A stretch of DNA of 63,999 bases. It comes from a virus (Duplodnaviria; Caudoviricetes). Made by a program: the position numbers and the translations under genes. Positions 12,301 to 53,880 of the stretch are shown one piece after another. The stretch lies in IMG/VR virus record IMGVR_UViG_3300030101_003107, positions 1-63,999 of that record, one strand, 5' to 3'. The notes beneath the pieces are model-generated. The model saw nothing but the letters and a program-made list of their open reading frames with translations. It had not been told where the DNA came from and did no database searches. The first letter of the stretch is position 1. Every line of letters starts with the position of its first letter.

Positions 12301-15300
12301 CTTCTGCTATAGTTTCACCTCTAGCATTTATTAAGTAGTTAGGATTTATTCCACCATCGTTAGCGTTTACTAATGGATTAAAATATCTTATCCACTTAGA
12401 TTTTAATCCTAACAATATATCAAGATGATATTCTAGCGGCGGTGCTTGAACAAAATTAAACTTAACGCCATTAATTTCACCTTTAAGCTTTTTATCGTAA
12501 GATAAAGGCAAAGATCCTTGAGCATAGTTTTCAAAAGCGCCATCAATATACAACTCTAAGTTGCCTTGCAAAGCTCTATTAAATAAAAATTTAGCAAAGT
12601 CGCTAGCTGGTAAAGTGTGTTCTTCTACGTTTTTTTCATTAAGAGTATTAGTAAATTCTAATGTTGATATAACTCTAGCAAAATGACCCATGTTCTGAGA
12701 AGTAGAAGCAAACATAGTAGCAAAATAAGGTATAGTCTCAGGTTGAGCTTGCATTATCTCTTGTATTTTAAGCCATACCTTTTTAGCGCCTATTATTGAT
12801 GATTCGTGATACTCAGAGTCTTTTAGTTTTTCCGCAACCGTTTTACCAGTTGATTTGCCGTATTTACCTACCGATGAAACAGCTGCAGTTATATCTGGAT
12901 CAGAAGGGGCAAACTTAGCTCCTTCAACAGAGCTTAATAAATCTTGTTTACTTGTAAAAGCAAAGTTTCTTTTTCTACCATTAGCTCCAGCTCCAGCAAA
13001 AGTTCCTACAGTTAACATTTCTATTGGAAAGTTAGGTGCTATGGTATTTTTTACAAAGTCTCTATAATTTTGAAGATCTGCGTCGTTATTAACTATGTCT
13101 ATAGGTTGAACATCTTGAGTAGCGGCAGCAACAACGCTTTTCCAAGCTTTGTTTTCTTGTCGAAGCATTTTGTTTAAGTCTGTATCTTCTTTAGAAAACA
13201 TATAGTTTGCCATACCGTCAGATATGCTAGTTAGCTCTGGATTTTGTCTTCTTATTTCTTGATTAGTTATAACTTTACCAAGTAAATCTGCAAGTGCTAT
13301 AACTCTAGCCGATGTATTTCTATTACGTGTTGGCTTACCGTCTATAATATCTATAAGCTCTAATAACTCTGAGTCTTTAATGTTTGTTCTTTTGACCTGA
13401 GTGCGCAAACCTGCTTTAGTTTTAGCTCTAGAGTCTCTTTTATTATAAAGTGTCTCTAATACAGTCTTAGGCACTCCTGTTGCTTTACCTGATGAATCAA
13501 AGCCTTGCGGTAAAGCTTGTATTACTAAAGCGGCATTAGCTTTAAACCATCTTTGCGCTGAAGCTACTTCTGCGGCTGTAAGATTTGCTTTGCTCTTAAT
13601 TTTATCAGGTGATATACCTAACAATTTACCAATAGTATTTCTAGCGGCATTTGGCACGCTCTTAAAATTAGACAATGTAGAAAACTTAGTTTCTTGTTCG
13701 TTTACCTCTGTAGTAACTTCATTTTGTATGTTTAACCTATCAGCTAATACTATATCTTTAGTTTTTCTTTCTGGCTGTTGCTCTACAGTTTCTTCAGCCG
13801 CAACACCTCTAGCCTCTGTTACATCATCTGTAAACTCTTCGCCTAACACTCTACGTGAAGCCTCAATAGCTCTAGCAGGTAAAAACTTATTTATGTAAGC
13901 AGCTAATGGTACGCCTGACTCAGGATTATATTTTTGTATAAGATCAAATATACCTCTTTCACCAGTGTTTATTTCATCAGTTAATAATTGTCTATCAAAG
14001 TTAGGCGCTTCAGATCTTCTCTGCACAAGTCTATTTACTATAGGTGCAAACTGATCTATAATACTCATAGCACCACCTACACCTTGATCTTGGTATATTT
14101 GTTGTACTCTATCAGAGGCTTCTTTTGAAAACTGTTGAACATCACCTGGTTTTATATCAGTAGGTAGTATGTCACCTTTAATTCCTTTAGCAGCTGATTT
14201 AATTAAATCTTTGTTTATATTGCCTGACTCTACAGACTCTACATAGTCTCTAAAAAAGTTAAATACATCTTGATTAGTGTTAAACTTATATTCTAAACCA
14301 GTTGTATTTTTAGTAAATCGCTTGACAACATCTTTTAATCTACTAAATAAGTTATCGTTAAATTTAATATCACCATTTTGAACTGCTTCAGCTGCTAGTG
14401 TAAATACTTCTTCGCTTTTACCTTCAGCTTCTGTATATTGATCTAATCTTCTTTTAAAATCAGTACCTTCTATAGCTATATTGTTTTCATCAAAGCTTTC
14501 TAATAAAGCATCACCAAATGCTTTTCTTGCGGCTTGATTACCTTGCAAAGTAGCAAAAAGCAAAGCATGTCCAAACTCATGTGTAAGTGTAGTCATAACG
14601 CCGTCTCTTAGCTCAGACTCTTGATTTATAAATATTTCTAAACCACCTTTACCGTCTTGTCTTATAGCACCATATCTAGTAGACTCACCTTTTAATATTT
14701 CTTCTCTTTTTCTAAACTGTTCGCTTTGAGATCGTTTTTCTTTTCTTGCTTCTGCTATTTCTTCTTGTGTAGAACTAGGATCGTTTATTATTTCGTCCAT
14801 AGCTTGAATAGCACCTATATCAAACGAAGCTTGTTCATCGTCTCTTCTCCAGTTAACAAAGTCATTAGAATTACCTTTACGTATATCTACATTAACGCCT
14901 TGTTGTTTTAAAGCTTCGGCTTGCAGCGACACATTTTCAAATAACTTTTCTCTACGAGAGTTTTGAGCGCTTTCTATTAAGTTAAAGTTATCTTGATTAC
15001 GTTTATTTATTTTATCTAAAATTAACTCTTTGTCTTTATCAGTTTTAGCTCTTCTTAGTTTATTTTTTTGCTTGTGAATAGCATCTAAGTTTTGAGCATA
15101 AGTTTTAAGTTGAGAATTACTTAAAGAGTTAAAAGTTCTATATAAGCTTTTTTTATTAGCTACTTGCGCGTTGTTAAGATCTTTTATTTCCTCTTGTATT
15201 CCAGCTTTTTCAGACTCTTTAGCTGTTTCTAACTGTTTTACTTTAGCATCAATTTGCGTGGCTATATCAAATTGTATATTTTTAAACTGTTGTGGCGCTA

Positions 15301-16765
15301 AATAATTATATACTTGTTCTACTTCTTTTGGTTTTGTAGCAACACTAGTTACTGATGCAGCAGGACCACCTAGCAAAGCACCTATACCAGCATCATGTAT
15401 AACATTTGTAAAAAACTCTTTACCACCTATCTCGTCGTCAAATATAAACATATCTCCAAGCTGCTGCAAAGTTTTATTCGCTCCTTCTGTAGCACCTTCT
15501 GTTACAAAACCACCACCAAACTTTGAAATAGCGTTAGTAGTATAACTTCTAATATAGTCTGTAACAGCTTTTTCGCTAGCACCTACTCTTCTTAATCCTA
15601 CTACATCTCTAAATAATCTAGCTCCCAAATATTCTGTACCCCACTCAAACAAACCATCTGTACTACTAGTTAAATATAACTCTCCAATAGTAGCGTCTGG
15701 TCTTTCTTTTAAGTTTTGTTCAAAACTACTACCAGCTGCAGAAGTACCTAAAGCTATACTACCATACATTGGAAAACCAATTGCTAAAGCCAAAGAAGGT
15801 ATGTTAGATAAAGCTTGCTCAGAAGCTACTTTAGCAGCGTTAGGATAATCACCTTTTTTTATAAGATCAATATACGTCATGGTGTTGCCGTCTTCATCTC
15901 TAACGTTAGTCATGTGACTTCTTAGTTTAGCTGAAGTGTATTTTAGCTGTTCTGTAGGTATATCTGGATATGTTCTTTGTACAATCTCTAGTGGTAAACC
16001 TGTTGATTGAGCTATTAAAGGTTTTAAGCCATAATTGTTTACAAAATCAACCATACCAGCGGTTAAATCTAGTGTTACTGCTTTTACACCAGACAAATAA
16101 GGAATTAAAGCTTTAGGAATGTTTGAGTTTGCTGATAGTTTAATTTTTTCGGCTTCTGCTATAGCGTCTTGAAGATCATAACCTGTTTTTTTATAAATCT
16201 CTTTACGCTCGTTTAAATCTAGTTGTCTAGCTTCAAGATCTTTGCCAGCTTCAGCTGCTTTAAAAAAATTATCTCTAAGCGTATAATATTCGTCTAAAGT
16301 TTCTTGAGGAAAGTTTGCAGGAAGTTTTTTATTTTCATCTAATTGCAAAGCTATGTTTTGATTATAAAAACCATCAACAACATCTTTAGCATTATTTAAT
16401 TTTTCAGTGTATTCTTCTATTGTTTTGCTTAGCTCTCTTTGTTGAACTTCTAAAGGCACTATATCAACTTCAGGTAAAGTTACGCCTTTTATAGTATCGT
16501 CTTCTACTCTTGCTCCGGGCACAACGTCAAAACCTGAAGCTTGAACTTCTGCTATAGTTTCAGGATTATTTGTGTAAGTAGGAAACTCCGATAAAGATTT
16601 TGCCGAACTGGATGCCGTACTTTCTGGCTCCGCAGGGGCATCCACTTTCTGGGGAGCTTGTTCTTTTTTTGTTTCGACGTAGTTTGTAATAAAGCCTTTT
16701 ATTTCATCATCAGACTTTCCAGCATCGATTAGTTTTTGAATTTCTAATTCTAACTCTTCGTTCAT
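9386..16765 (-). CDS. Giant virion/ejection polyvalent protein (zincin + sigma70-like + HAD + helical C-terminus + CCCH finger)
   Basis: Third gene of the post-tail ejection trio; HEFGH at aa 729; sigma region-2-like GIFDLIQKYNPESGVPLAAYI; HAD FDFDETL..LTAR..FVDD; terminal C-x9-C-x10-C-x2-H. Confidence 0.85.
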   Translation of the reverse strand: MNEELELEIQKLIDAGKSDDEIKGFITNYVETKKEQAPQKVDAPAEPESTASSSAKSLSEFPTYTNNPETIAEVQASGFDVVPGARVEDDTIKGVTLPEVDIVPLEVQQRELSKTIEEYTEKLNNAKDVVDGFYNQNIALQLDENKKLPANFPQETLDEYYTLRDNFFKAAEAGKDLEARQLDLNERKEIYKKTGYDLQDAIAEAEKIKLSANSNIPKALIPYLSGVKAVTLDLTAGMVDFVNNYGLKPLIAQSTGLPLEIVQRTYPDIPTEQLKYTSAKLRSHMTNVRDEDGNTMTYIDLIKKGDYPNAAKVASEQALSNIPSLALAIGFPMYGSIALGTSAAGSSFEQNLKERPDATIGELYLTSSTDGLFEWGTEYLGARLFRDVVGLRRVGASEKAVTDYIRSYTTNAISKFGGGFVTEGATEGANKTLQQLGDMFIFDDEIGGKEFFTNVIHDAGIGALLGGPAASVTSVATKPKEVEQVYNYLAPQQFKNIQFDIATQIDAKVKQLETAKESEKAGIQEEIKDLNNAQVANKKSLYRTFNSLSNSQLKTYAQNLDAIHKQKNKLRRAKTDKDKELILDKINKRNQDNFNLIESAQNSRREKLFENVSLQAEALKQQGVNVDIRKGNSNDFVNWRRDDEQASFDIGAIQAMDEIINDPSSTQEEIAEARKEKRSQSEQFRKREEILKGESTRYGAIRQDGKGGLEIFINQESELRDGVMTTLTHEFGHALLFATLQGNQAARKAFGDALLESFDENNIAIEGTDFKRRLDQYTEAEGKSEEVFTLAAEAVQNGDIKFNDNLFSRLKDVVKRFTKNTTGLEYKFNTNQDVFNFFRDYVESVESGNINKDLIKSAAKGIKGDILPTDIKPGDVQQFSKEASDRVQQIYQDQGVGGAMSIIDQFAPIVNRLVQRRSEAPNFDRQLLTDEINTGERGIFDLIQKYNPESGVPLAAYINKFLPARAIEASRRVLGEEFTDDVTEARGVAAEETVEQQPERKTKDIVLADRLNIQNEVTTEVNEQETKFSTLSNFKSVPNAARNTIGKLLGISPDKIKSKANLTAAEVASAQRWFKANAALVIQALPQGFDSSGKATGVPKTVLETLYNKRDSRAKTKAGLRTQVKRTNIKDSELLELIDIIDGKPTRNRNTSARVIALADLLGKVITNQEIRRQNPELTSISDGMANYMFSKEDTDLNKMLRQENKAWKSVVAAATQDVQPIDIVNNDADLQNYRDFVKNTIAPNFPIEMLTVGTFAGAGANGRKRNFAFTSKQDLLSSVEGAKFAPSDPDITAAVSSVGKYGKSTGKTVAEKLKDSEYHESSIIGAKKVWLKIQEIMQAQPETIPYFATMFASTSQNMGHFARVISTLEFTNTLNEKNVEEHTLPASDFAKFLFNRALQGNLELYIDGAFENYAQGSLPLSYDKKLKGEINGVKFNFVQAPPLEYHLDILLGLKSKWIRYFNPLVNANDGGINPNYLINARGETIAEEFGLGVDVSLHSDASTISTQQNLLYQFLNGDITASQAKNNLDTFLQTRNKIKPNAEIKQNSSISQNISSVRPVLAYSKDSKGMSTFDFDETLIIDGENFVTATKDGETVKIPSDKWPIDGPKLAADGYEFDFSDFANVRGGKEGPLLQKMKNQIKKYGPSNVFVLTARMQEAAEPIHKWLKSQGINIPLKNITGLGKSEGDAKAAWFLEKYQEGYNDMYFVDDALPNVEAVKHVFDQLDVKGKSVQARINFSKDMSSEFNKMIERTKGVAAEKIFSRVVGQKRGKNIGRYRFFVPPSAEDFAGLLYDFYGKGKQGDADMEFMKKALLDPFGRADREMSEARMSILDDYKLLRKEIPNVKKRLGKLIEKDTGFTFDNAIRVYLFDKAGFEVPGISKRDLNYLKNVVNTDQDLKTFADALSIVSKRDKGWIEPSENWSVESIASDLENIVNKIGRKQYLAEFIENKNIIFSTENMNKIEAIYGSRFRSALEDSLYRMENGTNRSSGRTYGQAWTNWVNGSVGAIMFFNARSAVLQTLSTVNFINFDDNNIFKAGKAFANQKQYWSDFSTLFNSDFLKARRAGLQINVNEAELANAVAGAQNKAKAALAYLLKKGFLPTQIADSFAIASGGSTFYRNRVETYTKQGMNKKAAEEKAFLDFQEIAQETQQSARPDRISQQQASPLGRLILAFANTPMQYNRLIKKASRDLINNRGDWRSNVSRILYYGAIQNVIFSALQSAIFALSFDDEEDDALDQRATRIANSMLDTILRGSGVAGAAVATIKNTIMRFISESERKSRADYGQVVVEAVQVSPPMGSKARKVYSALNAYKFNREIMGSMDTFDYNNPIWDATAKVTTAATNVPLDRLFRKTDNIREALNQENTAMQRAFLTLGWSAWDLQVGERVVVNKGKENQYVRYLDLKRQAQQEAKDELKEQKKKEKKQNKNQCSFIKRDSSRCKNMVNKPKTRCYAHD

Positions 16766-19161: not shown

Positions 19162-22100
19162 CTATTTGCTACTTTCAACAGCGTTTAGCGCTGCAGCAAA
19201 TAACTCAGATTTATTTTCAAAATCATTATTTCTCCAAACACATCTTGCATAGTAGCCTTTAACTCCAGAGTGTTCAACAGGATTTTGTGTTAATACAAGC
19301 AATATTGAGCTTATATCAACGTTATAATCATCTACAATAGGGCCTAATGCTTCAAATAGCTCAGGTGTAGATACATTTGTTGTTATTGACGTAGAATCAA
19401 AACTTACCACGCTTCCAAGATTTACAAATTGACCTACAGTTTCTGATGGAGGAATAACAGTTGGATTATCACCTACGGTAGTACGCATTACGCGCACGTT
19501 AACACCTTCTTGAATAACAGCCATGTTTATAATTCCTAAATCAAATGATATTGTAAAACCTAGGCTACCATCACTATTTTCTACAATGCTTGTTGGTATA
19601 CCTAAAGGAGCTATATATTTTTGAAAATCTTCACTGTCTGTAGATAAAGTATCACCTTGTTTATCGTCTATATTTACATGCATTAAATTATTATGCCATT
19701 TGTTTTCTTTATTCTTAAAGTTTATTGACATACCCTGCTCAAGATCTGTTGTAATTCTACTTATCCACCATCCATCTTTGTTTAAATTAGTAGATAACAC
19801 GCCGTCGTTATTGTTAGATATAATTCTAGCTTGAGTACCTTCATAGTTAGTATAAGTAAAGTCTTTTACAGTGCCAGGCATTTCGTTATAAACTAAAGCA
19901 ATTCTTGGCTCTTGACTACTAGGCTCTGATTGAAAATAACCTTCATAAAAGCCGTATTTAGCTACTACGTTGTCATGATGATAATGCTCGCTGCTAATAC
20001 TAAAATATTGATTTTTTAAACTATATCCTTGAGCATCTTTATAGTATGTTCTAAAAGAAGTCCAAGCGTTTAAGCTTTCGTCCCAAGCAATAGTCAAATA
20101 GCCAAAAATTTCATCTTCTATATCTGTAAGATCAAAGTTTCTACAAGATAAAAGATATTCGTTTTTATCAATATCATAACTTCCAAATATATAACTATTT
20201 TGATCTCTAGCGTCTGATAGTTGGTTTTTAAAATAAGAGTCCATACCTTGATCAGATATTATAGTCATACCATCTTTTGATAATCTTATAACAACACCAC
20301 GTTTGGCATCGGTAAAGTAAGATCTAAAACCATATTGAGCAAAAGACTCAGGATTATTTGATATACCATATTCACCGTCAAAAGCAACAGATTGACCTAA
20401 AACTTTATCAGTAGCTAATAAATCAGGATTACCATCAGCTTTAAATATTGCATCTTTTTGAGAAAGAACTTTTAAAACTTTATCTTCACAAAGAACTATT
20501 AAATCATTTGCTCTAGAGTATAGTTTTTGTATAAATCCGTGATCTGGATTAAATCTTTTAGTTATACCTAATGCTTCTATAAACTGATTAGTCTCGTTAA
20601 ATCCACTATAAGAATTATATATACCTGAAAATATTAAACCTTCACCAACCTTAATTTCAGCATAATCTTCATATATACTAGATGCCTTAACACCTTTTTG
20701 TATTCTAGCTCCATTAAAAGAGTTTTTAACAGTAGATATTTCTATACCGTTTCCAAAGCAGAAACAATTATAATAAGGTAAAGCTATAGGTGTAACTACA
20801 TCGTTTACTAAACTAAAGTTTGATAAATGCGTGTGTCTTTTTACAAGAATAGTATCACTATTAACAACGCTTTCTGCTACGGTAACGTATACGTGCTCTC
20901 CAACATTTAATCTTCCGCCTCTATGCTCTTGTATTTTTAAGACTAGTTGATCTGGATTAGCAGGAACAGTTATGGTTACAGGTTGACTTAAAGTTATTGT
21001 AGTATACAAAGCATCATTAATATTATGTCTACCAACATTAGTTGATACAGATGTTACTGTAATTGGAGTAAGATCAATATCGTCAAGAATACTAACCCCA
21101 CCATCGCCATCATTATCACTTGTATATAGTAGAGGAAAAGTAGTATCACCTACTTGAACAACGCTATTTAAACCTAAAGCGCCGCCTGGGCCTGGTATTA
21201 AAGCAGTATAATAATAAGCTTCTACCATACGACCAACTTTAATAAACTGTTCGTCAGTTTCATCGTCTAATACTATAGGATATGCTTGAGAAGCTTCATA
21301 ATATAAGTCTGTATCATAATTAGGTTTTGGCAATGTTTCAAATACACCTTGTGTTTTAGCTGTGTTCGGGCCAGGTAACGGGCCTACGTCATTGTTCACT
21401 ACTAATGGTCTATCAGTTTTTACATAAACAAAAAACTTACCTTCAAAAACGTTTGGATCATCGTCTAAAGCATCAATTAAAGCTTCAGGCACTTCATTTC
21501 TTATTCTTTGAACTTCATATTCAAGATTAAGATTGTCTGACTCATAGTTGTTTGTTACATTAGACAAATCAGGATCTGGTTGTCCAGATTTTCTATGAGC
21601 TCTTTTTTGTATTAGTATATCGCCTTCTTGAACTTTGTTTCTATGATCAGAACTAAATATTAAAACACTATTAGTTTTTTCTGTTAAGCTACTTGCTTGA
21701 GCTTCAACAGAAGCGTCATCTTCACCGTCAACATTTATAAAATGTCTAATTTCTTCTAATGGTAAAACATTATAATCTAAAGAAGTATCTTTAACAAAAA
21801 ATTTATATGACTTAGCCCAAGTTGGATGTGGGTTTTTAACTATTACAGATATTCTTTGTGTTTTTTTAGAGTCTTCTGGACTTACTTTTATAATAGCTTG
21901 TCTATTAGTTAAAACAGGTGTTTCTCTACCAAACTCATCTCTATAAACAATACCAACTTGATAAGATCTATAAGATTTAATAGACTCCTGTGGTACGCCA
22001 AAGTTAGGGTTTGTTCCAGCGAAAGCTTCTTCAAAAACTTCAATAGCTCCATCGTCTGAGCTAGCACCTATAATTATTGGGTTACCATCAGGTCCAAGTA

Positions 22101-25100
22101 TTTCATTTATTTCTTGATTAACATAGGTGTAAAGTCCTACTTCAAGATTAACTTTTATATCAGAAGAAGATATAATTTCGTTATTAAAATCAAGTACTGT
22201 TTCTACTAAGTTGTAGTCTTTTAAGTAATTACCATAAACAACTCTATTAGCAGTAACTTCTTGTGCTTTAGCTGATTTTGGCACAGAGTCAAAAGGTCTT
22301 AATATTTGATTAGGATCTATTGTTAAACCTAAAGTATTAGCATTAAAAGGATGTAAGCCTGTATAAGATCCGTTTGCTGGTAAATTATATTCACCATCTC
22401 TAAAATCATATTTTTTTACAGCATATATATTATTTGCTTCTTCACTTTTAACTACCAACTCTACAGCTTTTACATCATGTGGTAAATTTTTTGGTGTCCA
22501 GTCTATTAATCTTAAATCTTTTATTTCATTAATTAAAGATATGTAATAGTTTGGCCAATCTATTTTTTGATTTAAAGTTCTCCAAATAACTGTAGTAAAA
22601 GGCGCAAAGCCAGAGTATTCGTTGTCTTCGTATTGATACCTGTAAGAAAATCTTAACATAGCTTCTCGTAAAGACTTTTCATCAGCTAATCTGCCTGCGC
22701 TGCTACCTTCATATTGAGAAGCTAAACTAACAGACCAAACTTGAGGAAGAGGTGGACCATAAAATTTTGGATTACCTTGAGAGTCAACTAGCAAACCATC
22801 GCGGCCCCAATTTTGATTAGTAGTCCAATAAGGTGATCTTCTGCCTTTGTAATCTTTAGGTAACATTGCTGCGTTTTTAGTACTGTCACCTTCTCCAATA
22901 ATAATAGGGCCTTCATCGCCTGGTCTTACATACTTATTGCTTAAATCAACTCTTAACGATGGATCTAAAGGATCTTTAGCGTTGTTTTCATCTATTTGAA
23001 TAGTAATAATATATTGGCTAATAAAATGCTCTGTAGAGAAAAAACTTGGCGGTAAGTCTACTACTGTACCGTCATCTAATACTATTTCTTCTCCACCAGG
23101 ATCAGTGCCATCAATTATAGTTTGATCAACTAACCCATCATTTAAAAATATAAATTTATCTTTTAAATCAGTATAAACATTACCAAGGTTATCAGTGAAA
23201 CCTACATTGTTAGGAACACCATTTATAACTGCACCAGCTCCTGCTGGGCCTTCAGGCCGCATGTTTACATGCTCTATTTTTGTTATTGTAGCTTTTACTA
23301 AATCAGCAAACCCGTCGTGTCTTCTGCCTGCAAACCGTGTACTATTTAAAAAATTAGCTCCTAGTGGATTTGCAGGGCTATTGAAACTAAGCTCTTGAGT
23401 ATCTCCAAAGTCTTGCCCACCTTGATTGTCTATTGTCCAAAGATCTTCATCTACAAAACCTCCTGTTTCTTCTAAAACCGAAGCAGGTGTGAAAAAGCTA
23501 TTGTCGTCTTCATCTGTATAATAAACATCAGTATATCTACCAACTGCGTTACTTCTTCTAGTATTACCTTGACCTTCTAATACAATTTTGTCACCAACAC
23601 TAAATCCATGAGGTTGAACTACAAATCTTCCAGGCCCTGTAGGTCTATATAAATTATTTTCGTTTAAATCAATTCTACCATTATGCACAAAATCAGCCAT
23701 TGGACCATCGTCAGGATCTCCACCTAAACCCCAATATTCGCTAATAGCAGCTAAATTTTGCGAAGGGCCTGATATATTAGCTTGTGAAAAAAGACCACCT
23801 AAATGATAAGCTTTAGCTATACCGTGCTGATTTGCATAAATAGGTGGGGCAACATCACCATCAAGAAGATACCCTCCAGGCATTTGATTTGTGTAGTGTA
23901 TAACATCACCTTCTGATCCAGCGTTACCACCAAAAGAACTGCCAGGACTAAAAGATACTAGCACGTTTTCATTTACAGAGTTAGCACCTACACCTCTAGT
24001 ACCACCTGCGCCTGAATAATTTTCCCAATAAAACGGCTCTAACGCTTGATTAAAGACACCATCATCTTCAGTAATTCCTGAAGCCATACGCATTGGACCA
24101 ACTGGAATAATATGTCCATCAGTTGGATCATTAAAAAAACCAAAAAGTGGTCCAAGCTCTTGGTAAGAGTCCATACCAGCGTTTAAATAATTTTTAAACA
24201 ATGGGTAAGGCGCTGATGGTTGTGAGTTTGCTTGTACATTTTCAGCTATAGCAGTTGGAAAAACTAAAGACTCTATAGTATATCCGCGTGGATCGTCTTG
24301 ATTAAAAATGTTAGCTGGAACACCAAAAAATCCATTGCCAGCTCCCATTGGATCTAGCGCGCCAGTTCCTGGGGCAGCAGTACCGTAAATACTTCCTCTA
24401 GATGCTTTTACATAAGCGCCCCAAGATAAAGTGTCAGGAATATCAAGAGTCATGCTGTTTCTAAAGTCCATAGCTTGGTTGCCATTTACATCAGCATACG
24501 GAATAAAAGATCTGAAGTTATAATAAGTATCAGGGCCTAAGCCTACTAACGGCTCACCCAGTCCATCGTTAGTAATTAATCCACCGGCTTCGTTATAAAA
24601 ACCAGCTTCGTTTAAAAATGCAACTGCAAACTGTAATGTTTTACCACTTGCGTGGTTTGGATGTATAGGAAAAGGATGCGTCATAACACCTTTAGTTGGA
24701 CCAACTGTTTTAACGTCTGAGTCGCCAACCACAGCACCCACATCAGTTAACACTTTTAAATGCTCTTCTGGATTTGGTCTTATAACAGTACAGTGAGACT
24801 CTATAGTTCCACCTAGCCCTGTATTTATAGCATTGTTTGCTATAACAGCGTTATCGTGATACCCGTTAAACTGCCAACCAGGAACACCTTGAAAGCCTAA
24901 ATTGTTATCAGAGTTTTCTCTTAATAATCTAGTATGAAAAAGTCTTCTATCTGTAAGCCAGTCTGGATATACCGACTGTTGATCAGATAAAGTACCTACT
25001 TTAGATCTATTTATTTGTATTTTTTTAGGTTCGTTTTTATTATCTGTAAAAAATATTAAACCATCAAATACATTTATACCTGTTATATATCTTGAGTAAT

Positions 25101-26709
25101 CAAAATCTAATATTCTTTTAGATACAAAAGCAAAGAAAAAATTATCCTCATCAAGAGCTATGTCATCAGGAATAACTACATTATCTGCAAATCGATTAAA
25201 ATCATCTTTTATGTATACTCTGTAGTTAACTCTATCAACATAGTCAACATAAAAAGCATCTATTAAAGTATTTATACCAGCACCTTCAGTTAAAGAATTA
25301 GAAACAGCAAAATCAGTGCCTACTATTGTGTCATACTGAAGAATACGCATGTCCTCTCTAATGTCTAAGTCACGCATATTCAAACCATCGTCAGGAAGTT
25401 GTATGTATGTTCCTAATTCATTCATGGGCTGGCCTATGAAAACAGCTGGAGTTCTTATTTCATAAACATCGTTAAAAACTAAATCCATGTCTCCATGGCC
25501 ATTGTTTTCTTCTGATATTCGCTGCATAGCTCTATTAGGCTCATACTCGTATATAGCGTCAGCTCTAACAACAATGCCTCTAGCGCCAAAAGATTCTGGA
25601 TCAAGATCTTCTATAGCATCAATACCACCGCTAAAAAATTGTCGAGTATCTTCTCTAAATTGATCTATATGAGTAAAAGGATCGTGTTCACCCGTCAAAT
25701 TATCTGTTAAGTGATTCCATGTTCCAGGAATTGCAGTAATTAAAGCTTGATCTACAGTACCTCTATTAGGACCTGTTAACTCAATAAGATTACCATCTTC
25801 TCCAGCGGTAGGTTGAATTATTGTTACAGAGCTTCCGTCTAATTCAACGTTAACTCCTATGCTACTTAGAGCATTATAAAAGTTTGTTGCTTTTCCTTCT
25901 GCTGAAGCTGCTGAAGCTACATTTATAGTTACTAGCTCTCCTGCTTCATCAAAAATATGTCCATTAGGAAATGATATGTTAGTATAACTATAAGGAAAAA
26001 GCGGATTAGCTTGTGCTTCAGTTGTAAAAGCGCCATAAACAATAGTTATTTGACTAAAACCGCTAGATGTTGCGTTGTTTAACGTAAACCTCATTTGAGG
26101 ACATCCACCAATTGTTCCTGCGTCCCAAGGTCCTGAGCCATCAATTTGATAATCTGGATTACCTATTGCGGCTTCCCACCAGTTGCTGCTAAGTTGACTA
26201 CCAAAATCACTTGGACCTACTGGTCCTTCGTTTATCCAGCCAGGTTCGTTTGATTCAATATTTTCGTTATGTAATCCATATCTACGCGCAACTGCGTAAT
26301 CATAAAGAGGGCTTATGCCTACGTAATTATTAAAATTAATTGTAAATCTTGCTCTTTCACCAAAGCCTTCACCTTCTAGTCTAAAGGCATTAACATAAGC
26401 TGAGTCTTTAACGAAATGATAAGCATAATCATTTGTTCTATCTACAGCTGTACCTACTACTCTAGGTTGAGTAAAACCTACTCTTCTAGGGCCAAAAGTG
26501 TTTAGCTCTCCATCTCCTTGATGTCTCCATCTATCTTGAGCAATAACTTTAGTATTTGCTCTAACAGTTTCTAACGAACCTTCGTTTCCTTCTGAAGAAC
26601 TACTAACCCGTATGTTTATAGCTTCACGATATAAACCTTGACCTACTAGCCTCTCATCAAGGTCAAGATTCATTCCACCTTTAATAAAAGTTCTTTTTAA
26701 TTCAGCCAT
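19162..26709 (-). CDS. Tail stabilization / nozzle (muzzle-type) protein with large insertions
   Basis: GGMNLDLDERL, FFTDNKNEPKKI, RFSYRYQYEDNEYS, NRVVYGNY, RSYQVGIVYRDEFGRETPVL, YGISNNPESFA, FKNKENKW: motifs recalled for the P22-gp10-like tail protein of Bacteroidota podoviruses and crAss-like phages. Confidence 0.8.
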   Translation of the reverse strand: MAELKRTFIKGGMNLDLDERLVGQGLYREAINIRVSSSSEGNEGSLETVRANTKVIAQDRWRHQGDGELNTFGPRRVGFTQPRVVGTAVDRTNDYAYHFVKDSAYVNAFRLEGEGFGERARFTINFNNYVGISPLYDYAVARRYGLHNENIESNEPGWINEGPVGPSDFGSQLSSNWWEAAIGNPDYQIDGSGPWDAGTIGGCPQMRFTLNNATSSGFSQITIVYGAFTTEAQANPLFPYSYTNISFPNGHIFDEAGELVTINVASAASAEGKATNFYNALSSIGVNVELDGSSVTIIQPTAGEDGNLIELTGPNRGTVDQALITAIPGTWNHLTDNLTGEHDPFTHIDQFREDTRQFFSGGIDAIEDLDPESFGARGIVVRADAIYEYEPNRAMQRISEENNGHGDMDLVFNDVYEIRTPAVFIGQPMNELGTYIQLPDDGLNMRDLDIREDMRILQYDTIVGTDFAVSNSLTEGAGINTLIDAFYVDYVDRVNYRVYIKDDFNRFADNVVIPDDIALDEDNFFFAFVSKRILDFDYSRYITGINVFDGLIFFTDNKNEPKKIQINRSKVGTLSDQQSVYPDWLTDRRLFHTRLLRENSDNNLGFQGVPGWQFNGYHDNAVIANNAINTGLGGTIESHCTVIRPNPEEHLKVLTDVGAVVGDSDVKTVGPTKGVMTHPFPIHPNHASGKTLQFAVAFLNEAGFYNEAGGLITNDGLGEPLVGLGPDTYYNFRSFIPYADVNGNQAMDFRNSMTLDIPDTLSWGAYVKASRGSIYGTAAPGTGALDPMGAGNGFFGVPANIFNQDDPRGYTIESLVFPTAIAENVQANSQPSAPYPLFKNYLNAGMDSYQELGPLFGFFNDPTDGHIIPVGPMRMASGITEDDGVFNQALEPFYWENYSGAGGTRGVGANSVNENVLVSFSPGSSFGGNAGSEGDVIHYTNQMPGGYLLDGDVAPPIYANQHGIAKAYHLGGLFSQANISGPSQNLAAISEYWGLGGDPDDGPMADFVHNGRIDLNENNLYRPTGPGRFVVQPHGFSVGDKIVLEGQGNTRRSNAVGRYTDVYYTDEDDNSFFTPASVLEETGGFVDEDLWTIDNQGGQDFGDTQELSFNSPANPLGANFLNSTRFAGRRHDGFADLVKATITKIEHVNMRPEGPAGAGAVINGVPNNVGFTDNLGNVYTDLKDKFIFLNDGLVDQTIIDGTDPGGEEIVLDDGTVVDLPPSFFSTEHFISQYIITIQIDENNAKDPLDPSLRVDLSNKYVRPGDEGPIIIGEGDSTKNAAMLPKDYKGRRSPYWTTNQNWGRDGLLVDSQGNPKFYGPPLPQVWSVSLASQYEGSSAGRLADEKSLREAMLRFSYRYQYEDNEYSGFAPFTTVIWRTLNQKIDWPNYYISLINEIKDLRLIDWTPKNLPHDVKAVELVVKSEEANNIYAVKKYDFRDGEYNLPANGSYTGLHPFNANTLGLTIDPNQILRPFDSVPKSAKAQEVTANRVVYGNYLKDYNLVETVLDFNNEIISSSDIKVNLEVGLYTYVNQEINEILGPDGNPIIIGASSDDGAIEVFEEAFAGTNPNFGVPQESIKSYRSYQVGIVYRDEFGRETPVLTNRQAIIKVSPEDSKKTQRISVIVKNPHPTWAKSYKFFVKDTSLDYNVLPLEEIRHFINVDGEDDASVEAQASSLTEKTNSVLIFSSDHRNKVQEGDILIQKRAHRKSGQPDPDLSNVTNNYESDNLNLEYEVQRIRNEVPEALIDALDDDPNVFEGKFFVYVKTDRPLVVNNDVGPLPGPNTAKTQGVFETLPKPNYDTDLYYEASQAYPIVLDDETDEQFIKVGRMVEAYYYTALIPGPGGALGLNSVVQVGDTTFPLLYTSDNDGDGGVSILDDIDLTPITVTSVSTNVGRHNINDALYTTITLSQPVTITVPANPDQLVLKIQEHRGGRLNVGEHVYVTVAESVVNSDTILVKRHTHLSNFSLVNDVVTPIALPYYNCFCFGNGIEISTVKNSFNGARIQKGVKASSIYEDYAEIKVGEGLIFSGIYNSYSGFNETNQFIEALGITKRFNPDHGFIQKLYSRANDLIVLCEDKVLKVLSQKDAIFKADGNPDLLATDKVLGQSVAFDGEYGISNNPESFAQYGFRSYFTDAKRGVVIRLSKDGMTIISDQGMDSYFKNQLSDARDQNSYIFGSYDIDKNEYLLSCRNFDLTDIEDEIFGYLTIAWDESLNAWTSFRTYYKDAQGYSLKNQYFSISSEHYHHDNVVAKYGFYEGYFQSEPSSQEPRIALVYNEMPGTVKDFTYTNYEGTQARIISNNNDGVLSTNLNKDGWWISRITTDLEQGMSINFKNKENKWHNNLMHVNIDDKQGDTLSTDSEDFQKYIAPLGIPTSIVENSDGSLGFTISFDLGIINMAVIQEGVNVRVMRTTVGDNPTVIPPSETVGQFVNLGSVVSFDSTSITTNVSTPELFEALGPIVDDYNVDISSILLVLTQNPVEHSGVKGYYARCVWRNNDFENKSELFAAALNAVESSK

Positions 26710-46657: not shown

Positions 46658-46678
46658 ATACGATTACTAATGGATAAT
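46649..46678 (+). promoter_or_regulatory. Early promoter motif, copy 4
   Basis: ACAAAATAAATACGA-ttactaa-TGGATAAT. Confidence 0.85.
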
Positions 46679-46687
46679 AATAATGAT

Positions 46688-48398: not shown

Positions 48399-48428
48399 AC
48401 AAATTAAATACGATTACTATTGGATAAT
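48399..48428 (+). promoter_or_regulatory. Early promoter motif, copy 5
   Basis: ACAAATTAAATACGA-ttactat-TGGATAAT. Confidence 0.85.
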
Positions 48429-48452
48429 ATATATGACAAAAGCTTATTAAAT

Positions 48453-48668
48453 ATGAATAAATATTGTAAATGTGGTGAGCCCGTACACCCAGTTAGACAA
48501 AAATACGGGTACAAAACATGTGTTAAATGTAGTAATGTAGAGCGTGTCGCATCGGCACCTATTACTAATCATAAAACAGGTAACACAATACAAATAGTAT
48601 CACAGGCAATGTCTGTTGCTATACACAAGGCGAGTAGGCGTAAAGGCTACGGTACTTGTCTTAGATAA
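48453..48668 (+). CDS. C4 zinc-finger protein (TraR/DksA-finger-like)
   Basis: CKCGEPVHPVRQKYGYKTCVKC; start moved to ATG 48453. Confidence 0.65.
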   Translation: MNKYCKCGEPVHPVRQKYGYKTCVKCSNVERVASAPITNHKTGNTIQIVSQAMSVAIHKASRRKGYGTCLR

Positions 48669-48671
48669 TAT

Positions 48672-48745
48672 ACGAGGAGTGAAGTTGGAAGTTAGCGCAT
48701 AAATCTGCAAGACAGTAGCCCACTAACTCAAACACTTCACCTCGT
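48672..48745 (+). ncRNA. Structured element A (long hairpin)
   Basis: ACGAG/CTCGT, GTGAAGT/ACTTCAC and AGTTAG/CTAACT nested pairings, followed by TTT. Confidence 0.6.
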
Positions 48746-48752
48746 TTTATAT

Positions 48753-48841
48753 ACGAGCGTGGCGCGTGAGACGTGTTCAGTAAAATGGAACTAACAGGTG
48801 AGGCCCCAGCCTGACTGTTCTTACTCACTTGGCCACCTCGT
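48753..48841 (+). ncRNA. Structured element B
   Basis: ACGAG/CTCGT, GTGGC/GCCAC, GTGAG/CTCAC, AACAG/CTGTT, AGGC/GCCT; same ends as element A. Confidence 0.6.
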
Positions 48842-48850
48842 TTTACAATT

Positions 48851-48921
48851 GACTGGTAGTGTTAGTCTCACGTAGCATCTATCGCGAGAAGCTAAAGACA
48901 TTGCTCGCAGGCTAGTCACCA
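48851..48921 (+). ncRNA. Structured element C with acceptor-like stem and ACCA 3' end
   Basis: GACTGGT/GCTAGTC 7-bp stem + A + CCA; internal TCTCaCG/CGcGAGA helix. Confidence 0.5.
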
Positions 48922-48923
48922 AA

Positions 48924-48973
48924 CAGCTAGGTATTGGCAATACAGGTTTGAGGTTCGATTCCTCACTAGCTAC
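48924..48973 (+). ncRNA. D-armless tRNA-like element D
   Basis: AGCTAG/CTAGCT stem, short GTATTGGCAATAC hairpin, AGGTT variable-like segment, canonical T-arm TGAGG-TTCGATT-CCTCA. Confidence 0.7.
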
Positions 48974-48988
48974 TAAAATTAAATAACT

Positions 48989-49174
48989 ATGAATATAATA
49001 ACAGTATTAGATTACGAAAGCGGTAAAGTATGGCAGTATAAAGTAGATGCAGTCGAGTATGTTCAGGTCGAAACCATTGAAGAAATACTTCAAGAACAAG
49101 GACATAAGCTAGAAGACATCGACTATATGATACACGCAGACGAAACTATTAACAAAATTAAAATTGAATTATGA
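48989..49174 (+). CDS. Hypothetical protein
   Basis: ORF with A-rich leader. Confidence 0.7.
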   Translation: MNIITVLDYESGKVWQYKVDAVEYVQVETIEEILQEQGHKLEDIDYMIHADETINKIKIEL

Positions 49175-49237
49175 GCAGATTAAAACCATTAACTAAGCCA
49201 AAAGGTATATTTTTGGTAACAAACCCAGGAAAATAAT

Positions 49238-49777
49238 ATGGAATACATGTCAACAGAAATTAGAAGTGCGCGCGAAGCAATGACTGTCTTTAAGATACTA
49301 GGTATCAAAGACGTCACTACAGATCGCCAACGTAAAAACGGTACACAAGTATTTGAGTTACCAATACAACAAATGTATCAAAGCTTAATACCAAAACCTT
49401 TACGTTTTGCTACTTACAAAGCAGGTTATGTTAGAAATGTAAGTGAGTACAACTCAAGTCCTTACCAAATTAACAAAACGAAAAAACGACCAGCAGGCAA
49501 AGGTTATCACTTTGAAACGGTTGAGCGTATACTTATTCCAAATTGGGAAGAGCGATTGATATACTTAGCTAAGTTTATTATCAAGAACTACTATAAAAAG
49601 CCTACATACTTAATTAACGACTATGTTATTAAGTGTTTGAAAGAAGCTTATTTTAGAGACTATAACAATAATCCTAACAATAGACTACCATTTGGCGATA
49701 TTGTTCACCCAGACTCTTCGCCAGTAGATGATATACAAGTAATTATTAACGGGCATAGGTATAACCTTACAAATTAA
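49238..49777 (+). CDS. Hypothetical protein
   Basis: 179-aa ORF; function not recognised. Confidence 0.7.
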   Translation: MEYMSTEIRSAREAMTVFKILGIKDVTTDRQRKNGTQVFELPIQQMYQSLIPKPLRFATYKAGYVRNVSEYNSSPYQINKTKKRPAGKGYHFETVERILIPNWEERLIYLAKFIIKNYYKKPTYLINDYVIKCLKEAYFRDYNNNPNNRLPFGDIVHPDSSPVDDIQVIINGHRYNLTN

Positions 49778-49798
49778 ATACGAATACTAACGGATAAT
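49769..49798 (+). promoter_or_regulatory. Early promoter motif, copy 6
   Basis: ACAAATTAAATACGA-atactaa-CGGATAAT. Confidence 0.85.
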
Positions 49799-49824
49799 AT
49801 TATAAACCAATTAAATAAACCATT

Positions 49825-52519: not shown

Positions 52520-53131
52520 GAGAGAAACCTAACATACCTAAATAATAAACGTTTAATATACAGGCGACATCCAGTATCAGATAAACCAGACATTGATACT
52601 AAAGAGTTTATGTATTTTGAAAACGGTACGCATCAATGCTACGAGCTATTTAGATCAACAGCAAAGATTACTACGTATCGTTCGCTTAAATGGCATTTAC
52701 TAGTACTTTGGTATTTAAACCCTAACCTCAACCAAGACGACTTTATACAACTAGCTGAATATATAGTACACAAGCCAAATGGCTTTGTAAGTTTTAACGT
52801 ATCAGAACGTTTGCTAGAAAAAGTTGTCTACGAGGTTAGCATGTCTGACCTTGATCGTCCACCTAAAAATAAATTACGTAAAGTTATATTTAAACCGTTT
52901 AGTGGCTTAACAAAAGAAATGAAATTATCTATTGTAGGCCAGCTAGTTGGTCAAAGTCCTAGAGTTTGTTCTGACGACATATATGAAGTTATGATAGATA
53001 TGCATGACATGGGCAAAAAGATTACAATAGGACGTATCGCAGGTCTGTTAGACTGTTCGTCACGTACAATATATAGACACATGTGTAACGAACTTAAAAA
53101 AGAAAAAGAATTACTTAACCAACAACTATGA
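52511..53131 (+). CDS. DNA-binding protein with C-terminal HTH (possible initiator or regulator)
   Basis: ITIGRIAGLLDCSSRTIYRHM helix-turn-helix. Confidence 0.75.
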   Translation: MSYERNLTYLNNKRLIYRRHPVSDKPDIDTKEFMYFENGTHQCYELFRSTAKITTYRSLKWHLLVLWYLNPNLNQDDFIQLAEYIVHKPNGFVSFNVSERLLEKVVYEVSMSDLDRPPKNKLRKVIFKPFSGLTKEMKLSIVGQLVGQSPRVCSDDIYEVMIDMHDMGKKITIGRIAGLLDCSSRTIYRHMCNELKKEKELLNQQL

Positions 53132-53880
53132 AACAATACGATTCAAATAATTTTAGCAGGTATAAAAAAGATGTTAAAGCATCTCAACCTAAAAATAAAG
53201 ACTGGCAACACTATAGTAGAGATGAACTTATAGTTAAATTTCTACCTCTTGTAGAAAATATAGCTAGAAAGTTTAATGATGGTGATGCTGCATCTGGCGT
53301 TATGTCGTTAAGTGATTGTATACAATTTGGTAATATTGGACTAACTAAAGCTGTTGATAAAATTATTTGGTCAACAATAACTGAGTCTAAAGATCCTGAA
53401 AGAACTATAAAATCTTATTTATCTAAAAGAATACGAGGCGCAATACGTAGAGCCACAGACGCTAATCGTAGTGGCATGCGTATACCAGAACATAAACTAA
53501 ATGATATACGTAAAAACTTTGAAAATGAAGATAATTCAAAGTTATTTTTTAACTCTATGTTTGAAAGTATAGACAAACAGTTAGACGATGAAAACTCTTA
53601 TTTATATCAAATCGAAGATACTTCAAAAGATCCAATGAGAAAAGAAAAGTTACACGCTGTAATAAGAGATATTATGCTTAAGCATTTAACTGACAAAGAA
53701 TATCATGTTATAAGACTAAGCTATGGTTTAGGTTGTGATAAAATATCTGCAAAACAAATAGCAGAAAAACTTGATATGAAAGGTAGTAGCTCTTATGTTC
53801 GTGTTTCTCAATTAAAAAAGCAAGCGATTGAAAAACTTAGAAATGTTTTAGATCACTCGCAAGTGACTGATTATCTGTAA
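53128..53880 (+). CDS. Sigma70-family RNA polymerase sigma factor (group-3-like)
   Basis: Region 2 RDELIVKFLPLVENIARKF...DCIQFGNIGLTKAVDK...RIRGAI; MRIP; region 4 LTDKEYHVIRLSYGL...IAEKL...RVSQLKKQAIEKLR. Confidence 0.92.
   Translation: MKQYDSNNFSRYKKDVKASQPKNKDWQHYSRDELIVKFLPLVENIARKFNDGDAASGVMSLSDCIQFGNIGLTKAVDKIIWSTITESKDPERTIKSYLSKRIRGAIRRATDANRSGMRIPEHKLNDIRKNFENEDNSKLFFNSMFESIDKQLDDENSYLYQIEDTSKDPMRKEKLHAVIRDIMLKHLTDKEYHVIRLSYGLGCDKISAKQIAEKLDMKGSSSYVRVSQLKKQAIEKLRNVLDHSQVTDYL

Follow-up and report, generated by a model that had tools for sequence, protein, structure and literature searches.

The window analysed here is the 63,999-base IMG/VR record IMGVR_UViG_3300030101_003107, a Caudoviricetes genome estimated to be 99% complete. 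Within a 320-nucleotide (nt) gap at 48669-48988, flanked on the + strand by a gene for a zinc-finger protein and by an open reading frame (ORF) of 61 amino acids (aa), it carries a 47-nt element (48925-48971, + strand) that resembles a transfer RNA (tRNA) lacking the D arm. Similarity of the large terminase places the phage with podoviruses of Flavobacteriia (best identity 64.7%), the matches being 87 phage records from Flavobacterium (68), Cellulophaga (15), Tenacibaculum (2), Maribacter (1) and one unclassified source. Gene content assessed with PHROGs and Pfam comprises a portal, the terminase, a crAss-muzzle-like giant protein, GroEL, a sigma factor and replication genes. No RNA-handling enzyme was found among the window products scanned against PHROGs and Pfam, the Pfam scan covering 61 ORF products out of the 78 window ORFs listed.

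The element combines an acceptor-like helix, made of G:C, C:G and A:T pairs only, with a small hairpin, a linker and a T arm (Table 1). The 5' strand of the acceptor leads straight into the 13-nt hairpin 1, with neither a position 8-9 linker nor a D stem, and this hairpin can also be drawn as GTATT-GGC-AATAC. The initial annotation of this locus described the same letters, helix, hairpin, AGGTT linker, perfect T arm and missing D arm, and both the coordinates and the RNAfold minimum-free-energy structure (-13 kcal/mol) bore this out. It also described the element as closing an array of non-coding RNAs, and indeed the element, which lies on the gene strand, comes after 256 nt that hold no + strand ORF of at least 30 aa. 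Its expectation that no standard tRNA would be called was likewise confirmed: ARAGORN reported 0 tRNA or transfer-messenger RNA (tmRNA) genes in the window, Rfam gave 0 matches at the gathering score, and no match to the Rfam tRNA clan appeared between 48400 and 49200 at E<=10. The one Rfam match obtained in that stretch at E<=10, to SNORD75 at 48657-48714, scored 16 bits where the gathering score is 50 and was taken as chance.

Within the window, the evidence for a specific fold is weak. The folding z-score is -1.6, and 12 of 200 shuffled sequences fold as well; a permissive search for a T arm next to a 6-nt acceptor strand gave calls in 28 of 200 shuffled windows (mean 0.18), and the T-loop pattern GGTTCRANTCC, with at most one mismatch, was found twice for 2.16 expected occurrences. 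The window by itself therefore does not set the element apart from chance; it is the homologues in related phages that do.

A tRNA-like family in marine podoviruses

Comparison with related contigs showed that the element belongs to an undescribed tRNA-like family, hereafter named T1, of which it is the shortest among 37 distinct members (47-116 nt). T1 is carried by uncultured marine podoviruses related to Flavobacterium and Cellulophaga phages. The 24 nt comprising the T arm and the 3' strand of the acceptor are present without a mismatch in 15 other viral contigs. Twelve of these have them at the same locus, past the same zinc-finger gene, and three (L003, L006 and L015) in a different context. 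Wider pattern scans raised the number of instances to 58, of which 57 have an identifiable 5' strand and 37 are distinct in sequence. We built a covariance model, R1, from 18 relatives with the window left out. Searched against the 64-kb window, R1 returned a single match, which spans the element end to end (48925-48971; model positions 1-73; 46.2 bits; E 6.9e-9), the parts present in relatives only (cargo and an extra arm, described below) being scored as deletions. The initial annotation had proposed a covariance search in related phages; the model made without the window recovered the element.

Pairing is conserved across T1 while the sequence changes. All six pairs of the acceptor helix are standard in the 37 distinct members, which fall into eight sequence types: AACTAG/CTAGTT (19 members), AGCTAG/CTAGCT (12), and GGATAG/CTATCC, AGATAG/CTATCT, AACCAG/CTGGTT and three G-U variants (one each). 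Four of the six pairs show compensatory changes and 100% of cells are paired; the 5' strands were located by complementarity, yet they always lie at the same conserved spot before G/A-T-A. The homologous hairpin 1 helices also covary (GTA/TAC, GTGA/TCAC, GTAA/TTAC). In a MAFFT alignment of 19 members, 95.6% of cells in four helices pair, as compared with 34-53% when the partners are slid, and changes on both sides occur in 8 of 18 pairs, a count reached by 0 of 500 shuffles. The claim that the element is not the product of random decay of a tRNA is borne out by the covarying acceptor.

Other parts of the element are conserved to different degrees. Within positions 9-16, 36 of the 37 members have a GG, and the trailer after the acceptor reads ACTA (18 members), ACAA (18) or ACGA (1), and never ACCA. 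Two details of the initial annotation did not withstand the comparison. It placed GGC at the anticodon position, but homologous loops read TGG, TGGTTC or CTGGAGA, and only the GG is conserved; we infer that this GG resembles an analogue of the D-loop G18-G19 more than an anticodon. The annotation also noted a C:A pair at 1:72, which is incidental: the base preceding the 5' strand is A in 19 members, C in 10, T in 5 and G in 3. Since this base varies, the helix is one of 6 base pairs (bp), and A48972 is a discriminator-like base.

The central part of T1 is variable. Types B and C, to which most members belong, have a 12-nt hairpin, TACY-GACG-RGTA, directly before the T stem; the outer pair of this extra arm is T:A in 26 cases and A:T in 5, and the inner pair T:A in 20, C:G in 10 and T:G in 1. 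Very different inserts are found in these types within the GTA/TAC closing helix. Type A (5 loci) has instead a small hairpin with GG in its loop (GTA-TGG-TAC, GTGA-TGG-TCAC, GTAA-TGGTTC-TTAC or GTA-CTGGAGA-TAC), followed by a second hairpin. At the place where a tRNA has its D and anticodon arms, most T1 members hold swappable cargo hairpins and an extra arm. The window copy shares the 6-bp acceptor, the GTA/TAC helix, the GG in the 5' loop and the A-C-N-A trailer, and has a 5-nt linker in place of the extra arm, second hairpin and cargo. The absence of extra arm and cargo makes it a truncated T1 member.

T1 and tRNA are distinct in both directions. R1 did not match any of five real tRNAs, among them those in L040, L003 and L206, at E<=1, and the Rfam tRNA model, applied to 12 relatives at E<=1, scored only the real tRNA of L040 and left six T1-bearing relatives unscored. 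With all Rfam families at E<=1, these 12 relatives gave the L040 tRNA-Arg and a weak COG2908 match within an ORF region. At the gathering score, 15 related loci gave only a real tRNA-Arg in L003, and L206 gave nothing. ARAGORN found no tmRNA in the window or in 45 related loci. It called a tRNA-Thr(cgt) for the L003 copy of T1, a call that we rejected: the Rfam tRNA model is silent there, and the hairpin called as the anticodon arm has a 6-nt loop, TTGCGC, and a stem of 5-7 bp.

The initial annotation had considered that relatives might carry a full tRNA at this place. This was right insofar as something longer is present; it is a tRNA-like scaffold of 70-116 nt and not a tRNA. These longer scaffolds are unscored by the Rfam tRNA model, and ARAGORN accepts only the dubious one in L003. 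A real tRNA-Arg(UCU), unrelated in sequence to the element, occupies the slot in one of 30 syntenic loci (L040:1924-1998, 72 bits); it lies exactly where the element would be and is followed by the same ACTAAAATTAAATA. As a side observation, a contig of an RNA library (run X5) joins a different T arm and acceptor end to window position 48972.

We then considered the position of T1 relative to genes. In 43 distinct genomic contexts, T1 lies on the gene strand, at a median of 249 nt past the previous same-strand ORF (n=37) and a median of 54 nt, with a minimum of 14, before the next one (n=39). It falls inside a same-strand ORF of at least 50 aa in 2 of the 43 contexts and inside an opposite-strand ORF in another 2 of 43. 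The window copy, with 256 nt of non-coding sequence upstream and 17 nt to the next ATG, fits this position. Judged from these sequence patterns, T1 is a structurally constrained, non-decoding tRNA-like family at boundaries between genes and non-coding RNAs.

Hairpin arrays and their cargo

The element closes a non-coding array of three hairpin units that follows the zinc-finger gene (Table 1). The zinc-finger protein has no Pfam or PHROG match, and tblastn found no match to it in 50,697 deposited phage records; its CGEP-type finger is reminiscent of DksA/TraR-type proteins. Unit 3 can alternatively be read as a 6-bp helix followed by A and CCA, without a T arm, and it has no homologue in any related locus compared. 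A blastn-short search of the 320-nt gap against the whole window for antisense targets gave only chance-level 10-16-mers.

Table 1. Coordinates and properties of the features of the window locus and of further tRNA-like types in related phages
Feature	Location	Strand	Remarks
Promoter-like motif ACGAWTACTANNNGATAATA	48410..48429	+	putative promoter; may start a unit of zinc-finger gene, array, element and two ORFs
Zinc-finger protein, 82 aa	48420..48668	+	C-x-C ... C-x-x-C; always precedes the array in relatives
Non-coding array closed by the element	48669..48924	+	three hairpin units, fold computed
Unit 1 hairpin, ACGAGGAGTGAAGT ... ACTTCACCTCGTTTT	48672-48748	+	insert recurs in 2 loci within another scaffold
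Unit 2, "M2" scaffold, long hairpin	48753-48844	+	ends conserved in 33 loci
Unit 3 hairpin, closing helix TGACTGG/CTAGTCA	48850-48918	+	CCA directly after (to 48921)
Element: acceptor-like helix, 5' strand AGCTAG	48925..48930	+	pairs with 48966-48971
Element: hairpin 1, GTA/TAC with loop TTGGCAA	48931..48943	+	holds the conserved GG; cargo of relatives inserted here
Element: linker AGGTT, 5 nt, variable-loop position	48944..48948	+	12-nt extra arm TACY-GACG-RGTA or second hairpin in relatives
Element: T arm TGAGG / TTCGATT / CCTCA	48949..48965	+	5-bp stem, T-loop consensus
Element: acceptor-like helix, 3' strand CTAGCT	48966..48971	+	pairs with 48925-48930
3' trailer ACTA	48972..48975	+	discriminator-like A, C, non-C base, A
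Next ORF, 61 aa	48989..49174	+	starts 17 nt past the element; kept in relatives with and without the element
T2, 151-209 nt	L004, L009, L024-L026, L032		GCCCAAG/CTTGGGC and GGTGG T arm; array start
T3 minihelix, 39 or 56 nt	L004, L005, L008, L012, L020, L037		abuts stop codon, about 15 nt before next ATG
74-nt tRNA-like type	L045:2911-2984		sequence unrelated to T1

The non-coding stretch before T1 is a mosaic of hairpin modules. The M2 frame, found in 33 related loci, has the conserved ends ACGAGCGTGGCGCGTGAGACGTGT ... CTTACTCACTTGGCCACCTCGTTTT and an interior that varies by phage and sometimes has two branches; it matches no Rfam family. The 46-nt interior of unit 1 is 100% identical to an insert in the M2 frame of L007 and L178, which indicates that cargo is exchanged between frames. 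Other cargo motifs are also found in more than one frame (several of the loci counted are one contig counted twice): CGGCGTAAGCAAAGG in T1 (10 loci) and M2 (2 loci), a third motif in M2 (5 loci) and in the T2 tRNA-like frame (1 locus), and a fourth in T2 (4 loci) and another hairpin frame (7 loci). The commonest cargo, of type C (e.g., L010:11004-11107), is a hairpin around the conserved core GTAAACGTYTTYACGAG, present in T1 frames at 12 loci. Its outer stem covaries (AATCAG/CTGGTT, ATATG/CATAT, GCG/CGC), and the cargo looks like a protein-binding or tertiary-contact motif. For the cargo hairpin GTATGAGGTTCTTAGCCCTCC, a preQ1-type aptamer was considered and dropped, as Rfam gave it no support.

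Three more tRNA-like types, T2, T3 and the type found in L045, were detected in relatives. Their sequences are unrelated, and neither Rfam nor ARAGORN calls any of them. T3 shows compensatory changes in both helices, the acceptor reading AGTGTA/TACACT or AGTGTG/CACACT and the T stem GGTGG/CCACC or GGTAG/CTACC.

The motif ACGAWTACTANNNGATAATA occurs on the + strand at 46660-46679, 48410-48429 and 49780-49799, each time just 5' of an ORF start. These three copies compare with 0.42 expected, and the count was reached by 1 of 100 shuffles. The motif may be a phage-specific promoter; in that case, the element would lie within one transcription unit. No motif of this type is present between the copies at 48410 and 49780. 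In relatives, variants of ACGAWTACTANNNGATAATA come after the tRNA-like element; one of them, ATACGACACGAGTCGGATAATA, includes a small hairpin. The phage encodes a sigma factor of its own at 53128-53880. A terminator role of the element finds no support at this place: no T-run follows it, and the terminator scan lists nothing there. Elsewhere in the window, two giant virion-region proteins are encoded on the - strand, one of 2,459 aa (9386-16765) with no family match, and one of 2,515 aa (19162-26709) with a crAss muzzle-like N-terminus and a match to a virion structural PHROG.

The window copy itself looks chimeric. In its 5' half, type A as found in L143 and L185 (GTACTGGAGATACAGG) is the closest, and its last 28 nt are identical to those of type C loci. 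The only other sequence with the exact minimal junction is a TARA scaffold; it matches the window at 100% identity over 1,091 nt and hence represents the same genotype, so that the minimal form is known from one genotype. The relative closest by the downstream ORF, L035, has neither the element nor unit 3. Sequence comparison suggests that the window copy is probably a recent product of internal deletion in, or recombination of, a longer tRNA-like scaffold, and not of a tRNA.

Two further observations concern sequences shared with the element. In L007 (reverse strand, about 190-384 of the reversed locus), the nine 5' bases of the element, AGCTAGGTA, occur twice and flank an 86-nt AT-rich insert, an arrangement that looks like a target-site duplication or a recombination scar. 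The second is a tRNA-Thr(UGU) with an encoded CCA (G001:C92:6264-6339; L192, L206), located on a 7-kb contig of the Bacteroidota metagenome-assembled genome (MAG) that also holds the sister phage contig L050. This tRNA and the element have GGTTCGATTCC and TCACTAGCT in common, with the register shifted by 2 nt, and the acceptor 15-mer of the tRNA was found in 1 of 301 sampled genomes of that class, which is the same MAG. This likeness may be a hint at the origin of T1 or a coincidence; it is unproven and was not used as evidence.

A putative processing module and its alternatives

Minihelices made of an acceptor and a T arm are substrates of RNase P, RNase Z and the CCA-adding enzyme, and the acceptor/T-arm stack together with the elbow between GG and T loop is what the bacterial versions of these enzymes recognise. 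By analogy, the reading that we favour, with a probability of roughly 0.45, is one that the initial annotation had also proposed in part: the element would serve in RNA processing and stability as a tRNA-like module that is cleaved by RNase P and RNase Z of the host. We favour it because of the membership in T1, the covariation, the boundary position, the interchange with a tRNA in L040, the punctuation by T3 and the conserved trailer. The element would be co-transcribed with the early + strand genes and would fold into a tRNA-like L-shape, with the GG docked on the T loop. RNase P would then cleave 5' of A48925, and the CCA-adding enzyme, together with RNase Z or exonucleases, would act at A48972 to give a small stable RNA. 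The transcript would be split between the array and the next ORF, so that the array would end in a defined and protected 3' terminus and the mRNA downstream would begin with a short leader. The scaffold of the relatives would also mature and stabilise the cargo hairpin that it carries, whereas an internal deletion or recombination would have removed cargo and extra arm from the window copy and left it with the part for processing and stability. The element does not encode CCA. The same is true of 18 of the 20 tRNA genes examined in the MAG with L050, which may not be the host, and this points to a CCA-less maturation route as the local norm.

Several points weigh against this reading. The acceptor helix has 6 bp and not 7, and a 7-bp stem is termed a major RNase P determinant in a passage of PMC4201824. 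Units 1 and 2 each close with a stem followed by TTTT and may therefore self-terminate, in which case the element may not mature the upstream RNAs. The invariance of the T arm in T1 is a matter of ascertainment, because the T arm served as the search pattern. The element is also dispensable: R1 detected T1 in only 11 of 30 syntenic zinc-finger loci, and L035 has none. Known from one genotype, the window copy may not itself be under selection. Nothing was concluded on transcription from sequencing runs: small portions of the 1-kb stretch are present in 24 of them (the best 0.24), and contigs from four marine or salt-marsh RNA libraries, at a likeness of at least 88%, cover parts of the zinc-finger gene, units 1-2 and positions 48946-49013, mostly with the sequence of relatives, and do not cover 48878-48945; being metagenomic Logan contigs, they may hold DNA and cannot show RNA ends.

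A different role for the same RNA would be that of a decoy or sponge, the minihelix, in relatives together with its cargo, titrating a protein that reads the elbow or acceptor end of tRNA, and processing serving only to make the decoy. Candidate targets are a tRNA-targeting defence nuclease, a toxin modifying the acceptor end, or a host tRNA-binding enzyme. We consider this unlikely, although several observations fit it. The phage is of lytic type, and the element lies in its early region with small accessory ORFs around it; T1 is patchy and fast-shuffling and exchanges cargo between scaffolds, as arms-race genes would; and what is conserved, namely the GG, the T loop and the acceptor end, is what proteins recognise on tRNA. 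The initial annotation had also suggested a decoy, and a precedent exists in phage tRNAs known to counter tRNA-cleaving defences (PMC11555353 and PMC10802454). However, known counter-defence tRNAs replace the cleaved tRNAs, and anticodon nucleases read an anticodon loop, which is absent from the element. No defence or anti-defence partner protein is evident nearby in the PHROGs and Pfam results. The acceptor sequences, moreover, vary freely among the eight types, so that no specific tRNA identity is mimicked.

The window copy could also be an inert remnant, a recently truncated cargo-bearing T1 scaffold or a chimera of two types that has no function and has not yet decayed, and we regard this as improbable, to the same degree as the decoy. 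Its size at the lower end of the family, the lack of extra arm and cargo, the type A 5' half joined to a type C 3' end, the single known genotype and the close relatives that do without the element would all be expected of such a remnant. Every helix that was kept is perfect, and the GG and the ACTA trailer are intact; this argues only weakly for function, as a fresh deletion would look perfect too. Other cargo-less minimal forms have nevertheless been kept, namely T3 of 39 nt (3 loci, with a compensatory acceptor change), a 53-nt form in L179 and a 46-nt form in L065, and their maintenance indicates that a bare minihelix can be a kept state.

On a broader scale, the exchange of cargo might reflect a natural scaffold-and-cargo RNA system run by marine phages. 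In their early-region arrays, the T1, T2 and T3 minihelices and the M2 and M4 long hairpins would be the stable frames, short structured cargo hairpins would be swapped by recombination, and host tRNA enzymes would excise and stabilise the cargo framed by tRNA-like structures. The cargo would consist of aptamer-like effectors, acting as decoys or sponges for host defence or RNA-binding proteins, and the window element would be an empty frame. Taken as a whole, we view this picture as speculative and rather doubtful.

Far less probable is an RNA active in translation, CCA-tailed and aminoacylated and acting on the ribosome or in another aminoacyl transfer, or else an armless decoder reading GCC. 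Every one of the 37 members has the discriminator-like A and C74, the order of acceptor, GG strand, long central helix and T arm resembles the tRNA-like domain of tmRNA, and TTGGCAA fits the Y-U-NNN-R-N pattern of anticodon loops. Against this, ARAGORN called neither a tRNA nor a tmRNA, there is no G3:U70, no conserved acceptor identity and no tag ORF, the loop is not conserved among the homologues, its stem has only 3-5 bp, and the acceptor/T stack amounts to 11 bp as compared with 12 bp in tRNA.

We likewise give very little credence to a role at the DNA level, in which the palindromes (AGCTAG..CTAGCT, GTATTG.CAATAC) would form a recombination junction, an operator or an attP-like tRNA fragment: the shuffled inserts are bordered by conserved scaffold ends, which could be recombination linkers, and the 9-nt duplication AGCTAGGTA lies on both sides of the 86-nt insert in L007, but the compensatory changes preserve pairing and not sequence, the elements lie without exception on the gene strand, which is also the only one on which the T-loop consensus can be read. 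The attP-type tRNA fragment was rejected, as the 19 nt of T arm and acceptor are present in no host tRNA among the genomes of 185,579 species (one genome per species), where the two matches obtained were the sister phage contig and a chance match, and none of the 61 ORF products scanned showed an integrase domain.

Relation to known tRNA-like RNAs

Non-decoding tRNA-like RNAs are known from eukaryotic long non-coding RNAs, plant and animal viruses, tmRNA and bacterial Y RNAs. With canonical tRNA (RF00005), the element shares the T arm with its T-loop consensus, the acceptor closing the ends, the discriminator-like A and a GG that is possibly like G18-G19. It differs by the absence of a D arm and of an anticodon arm with a 5-bp stem and 7-nt loop (the stem has 3-5 bp), and by a conserved acceptor of 6 bp instead of 7, the base opposite A72 being able to pair (T) in only 5 of 37 members. 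The Rfam tRNA model does not score it even at E<=10.

The tRNA-like modules of the mascRNA/MALAT1 type and those of gammaherpesviruses are eukaryotic or nuclear and are full cloverleaf mimics. The element resembles the mascRNA type as a tRNA-like fold at the end of, or between, non-coding RNAs that is proposed to recruit RNase P and RNase Z and thereby set RNA ends; it differs in having no D arm, no sequence relation and no Rfam match. The tRNA-like domain of tmRNA has in common with T1 the acceptor, a 5' strand analogous to the D loop, a long helix in place of the anticodon stem (in the cargo-bearing relatives) and the T arm, but the element has no G3:U70, no tag reading frame and no pseudoknots. 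Laboratories use the tRNA-scaffold design to stabilise and excise RNAs. As in these engineered tRNA scaffolds and polycistronic tRNA-guide arrays, the T1 relatives carry a foreign hairpin at the place of the anticodon arm within a frame of acceptor and T arm. T1 differs in being natural, in lacking the D arm and in having an extra arm, and the window copy is cargo-less. By analogy, the element would work most like mascRNA-type signals and engineered tRNA scaffolds, being a member of neither, nor of tmRNA.

YrlA is a non-decoding tRNA mimic in bacteria and phages, and that of Mycobacterium smegmatis is cut by RNase P and CCA-tailed, according to the relevant passages of PMC4201824. In YrlA as described there, the RNA ends form a Ro-binding stem and the tRNA-like part is internal and has a D arm. 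Both YrlA and the element are non-decoding tRNA mimics, whereas the ends of the element form the acceptor. No Rfam match to YrlA was obtained, and no Ro60/Rsr (TROVE/Ro domain) is present among the 61 products scanned with Pfam. A survey of structured RNAs in IMG/VR reports tRNA-like candidates in viral contigs (PMC10690425); the portion of its text consulted here names neither a Flavobacterium or Cellulophaga case nor such an architecture, and T1 may sit unnamed in its supplementary tables. A blastn search with window positions 48400-49400 and with a 111-nt T1 member gave no match in the 50,697 deposited phage records, and full-text literature searches found no description of the T1 family.

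As far as the literature found goes, a phage family in which a tRNA is stripped to an acceptor/T-arm handle, with its centre as an insertion site for interchangeable hairpins, is undescribed. If this handle recruits RNase P and RNase Z, T1 would be a natural counterpart of engineered tRNA scaffolds and a bacterial-virus case of tRNA-style transcript punctuation. The window copy is valuable as a natural minimal construct, which shows the parts left once the cargo is lost and would provide the simplest processing substrate. If the cargo hairpins are effectors, the arrays would constitute a new reservoir of RNA-based tools for host manipulation or anti-defence in abundant marine Bacteroidota phages.

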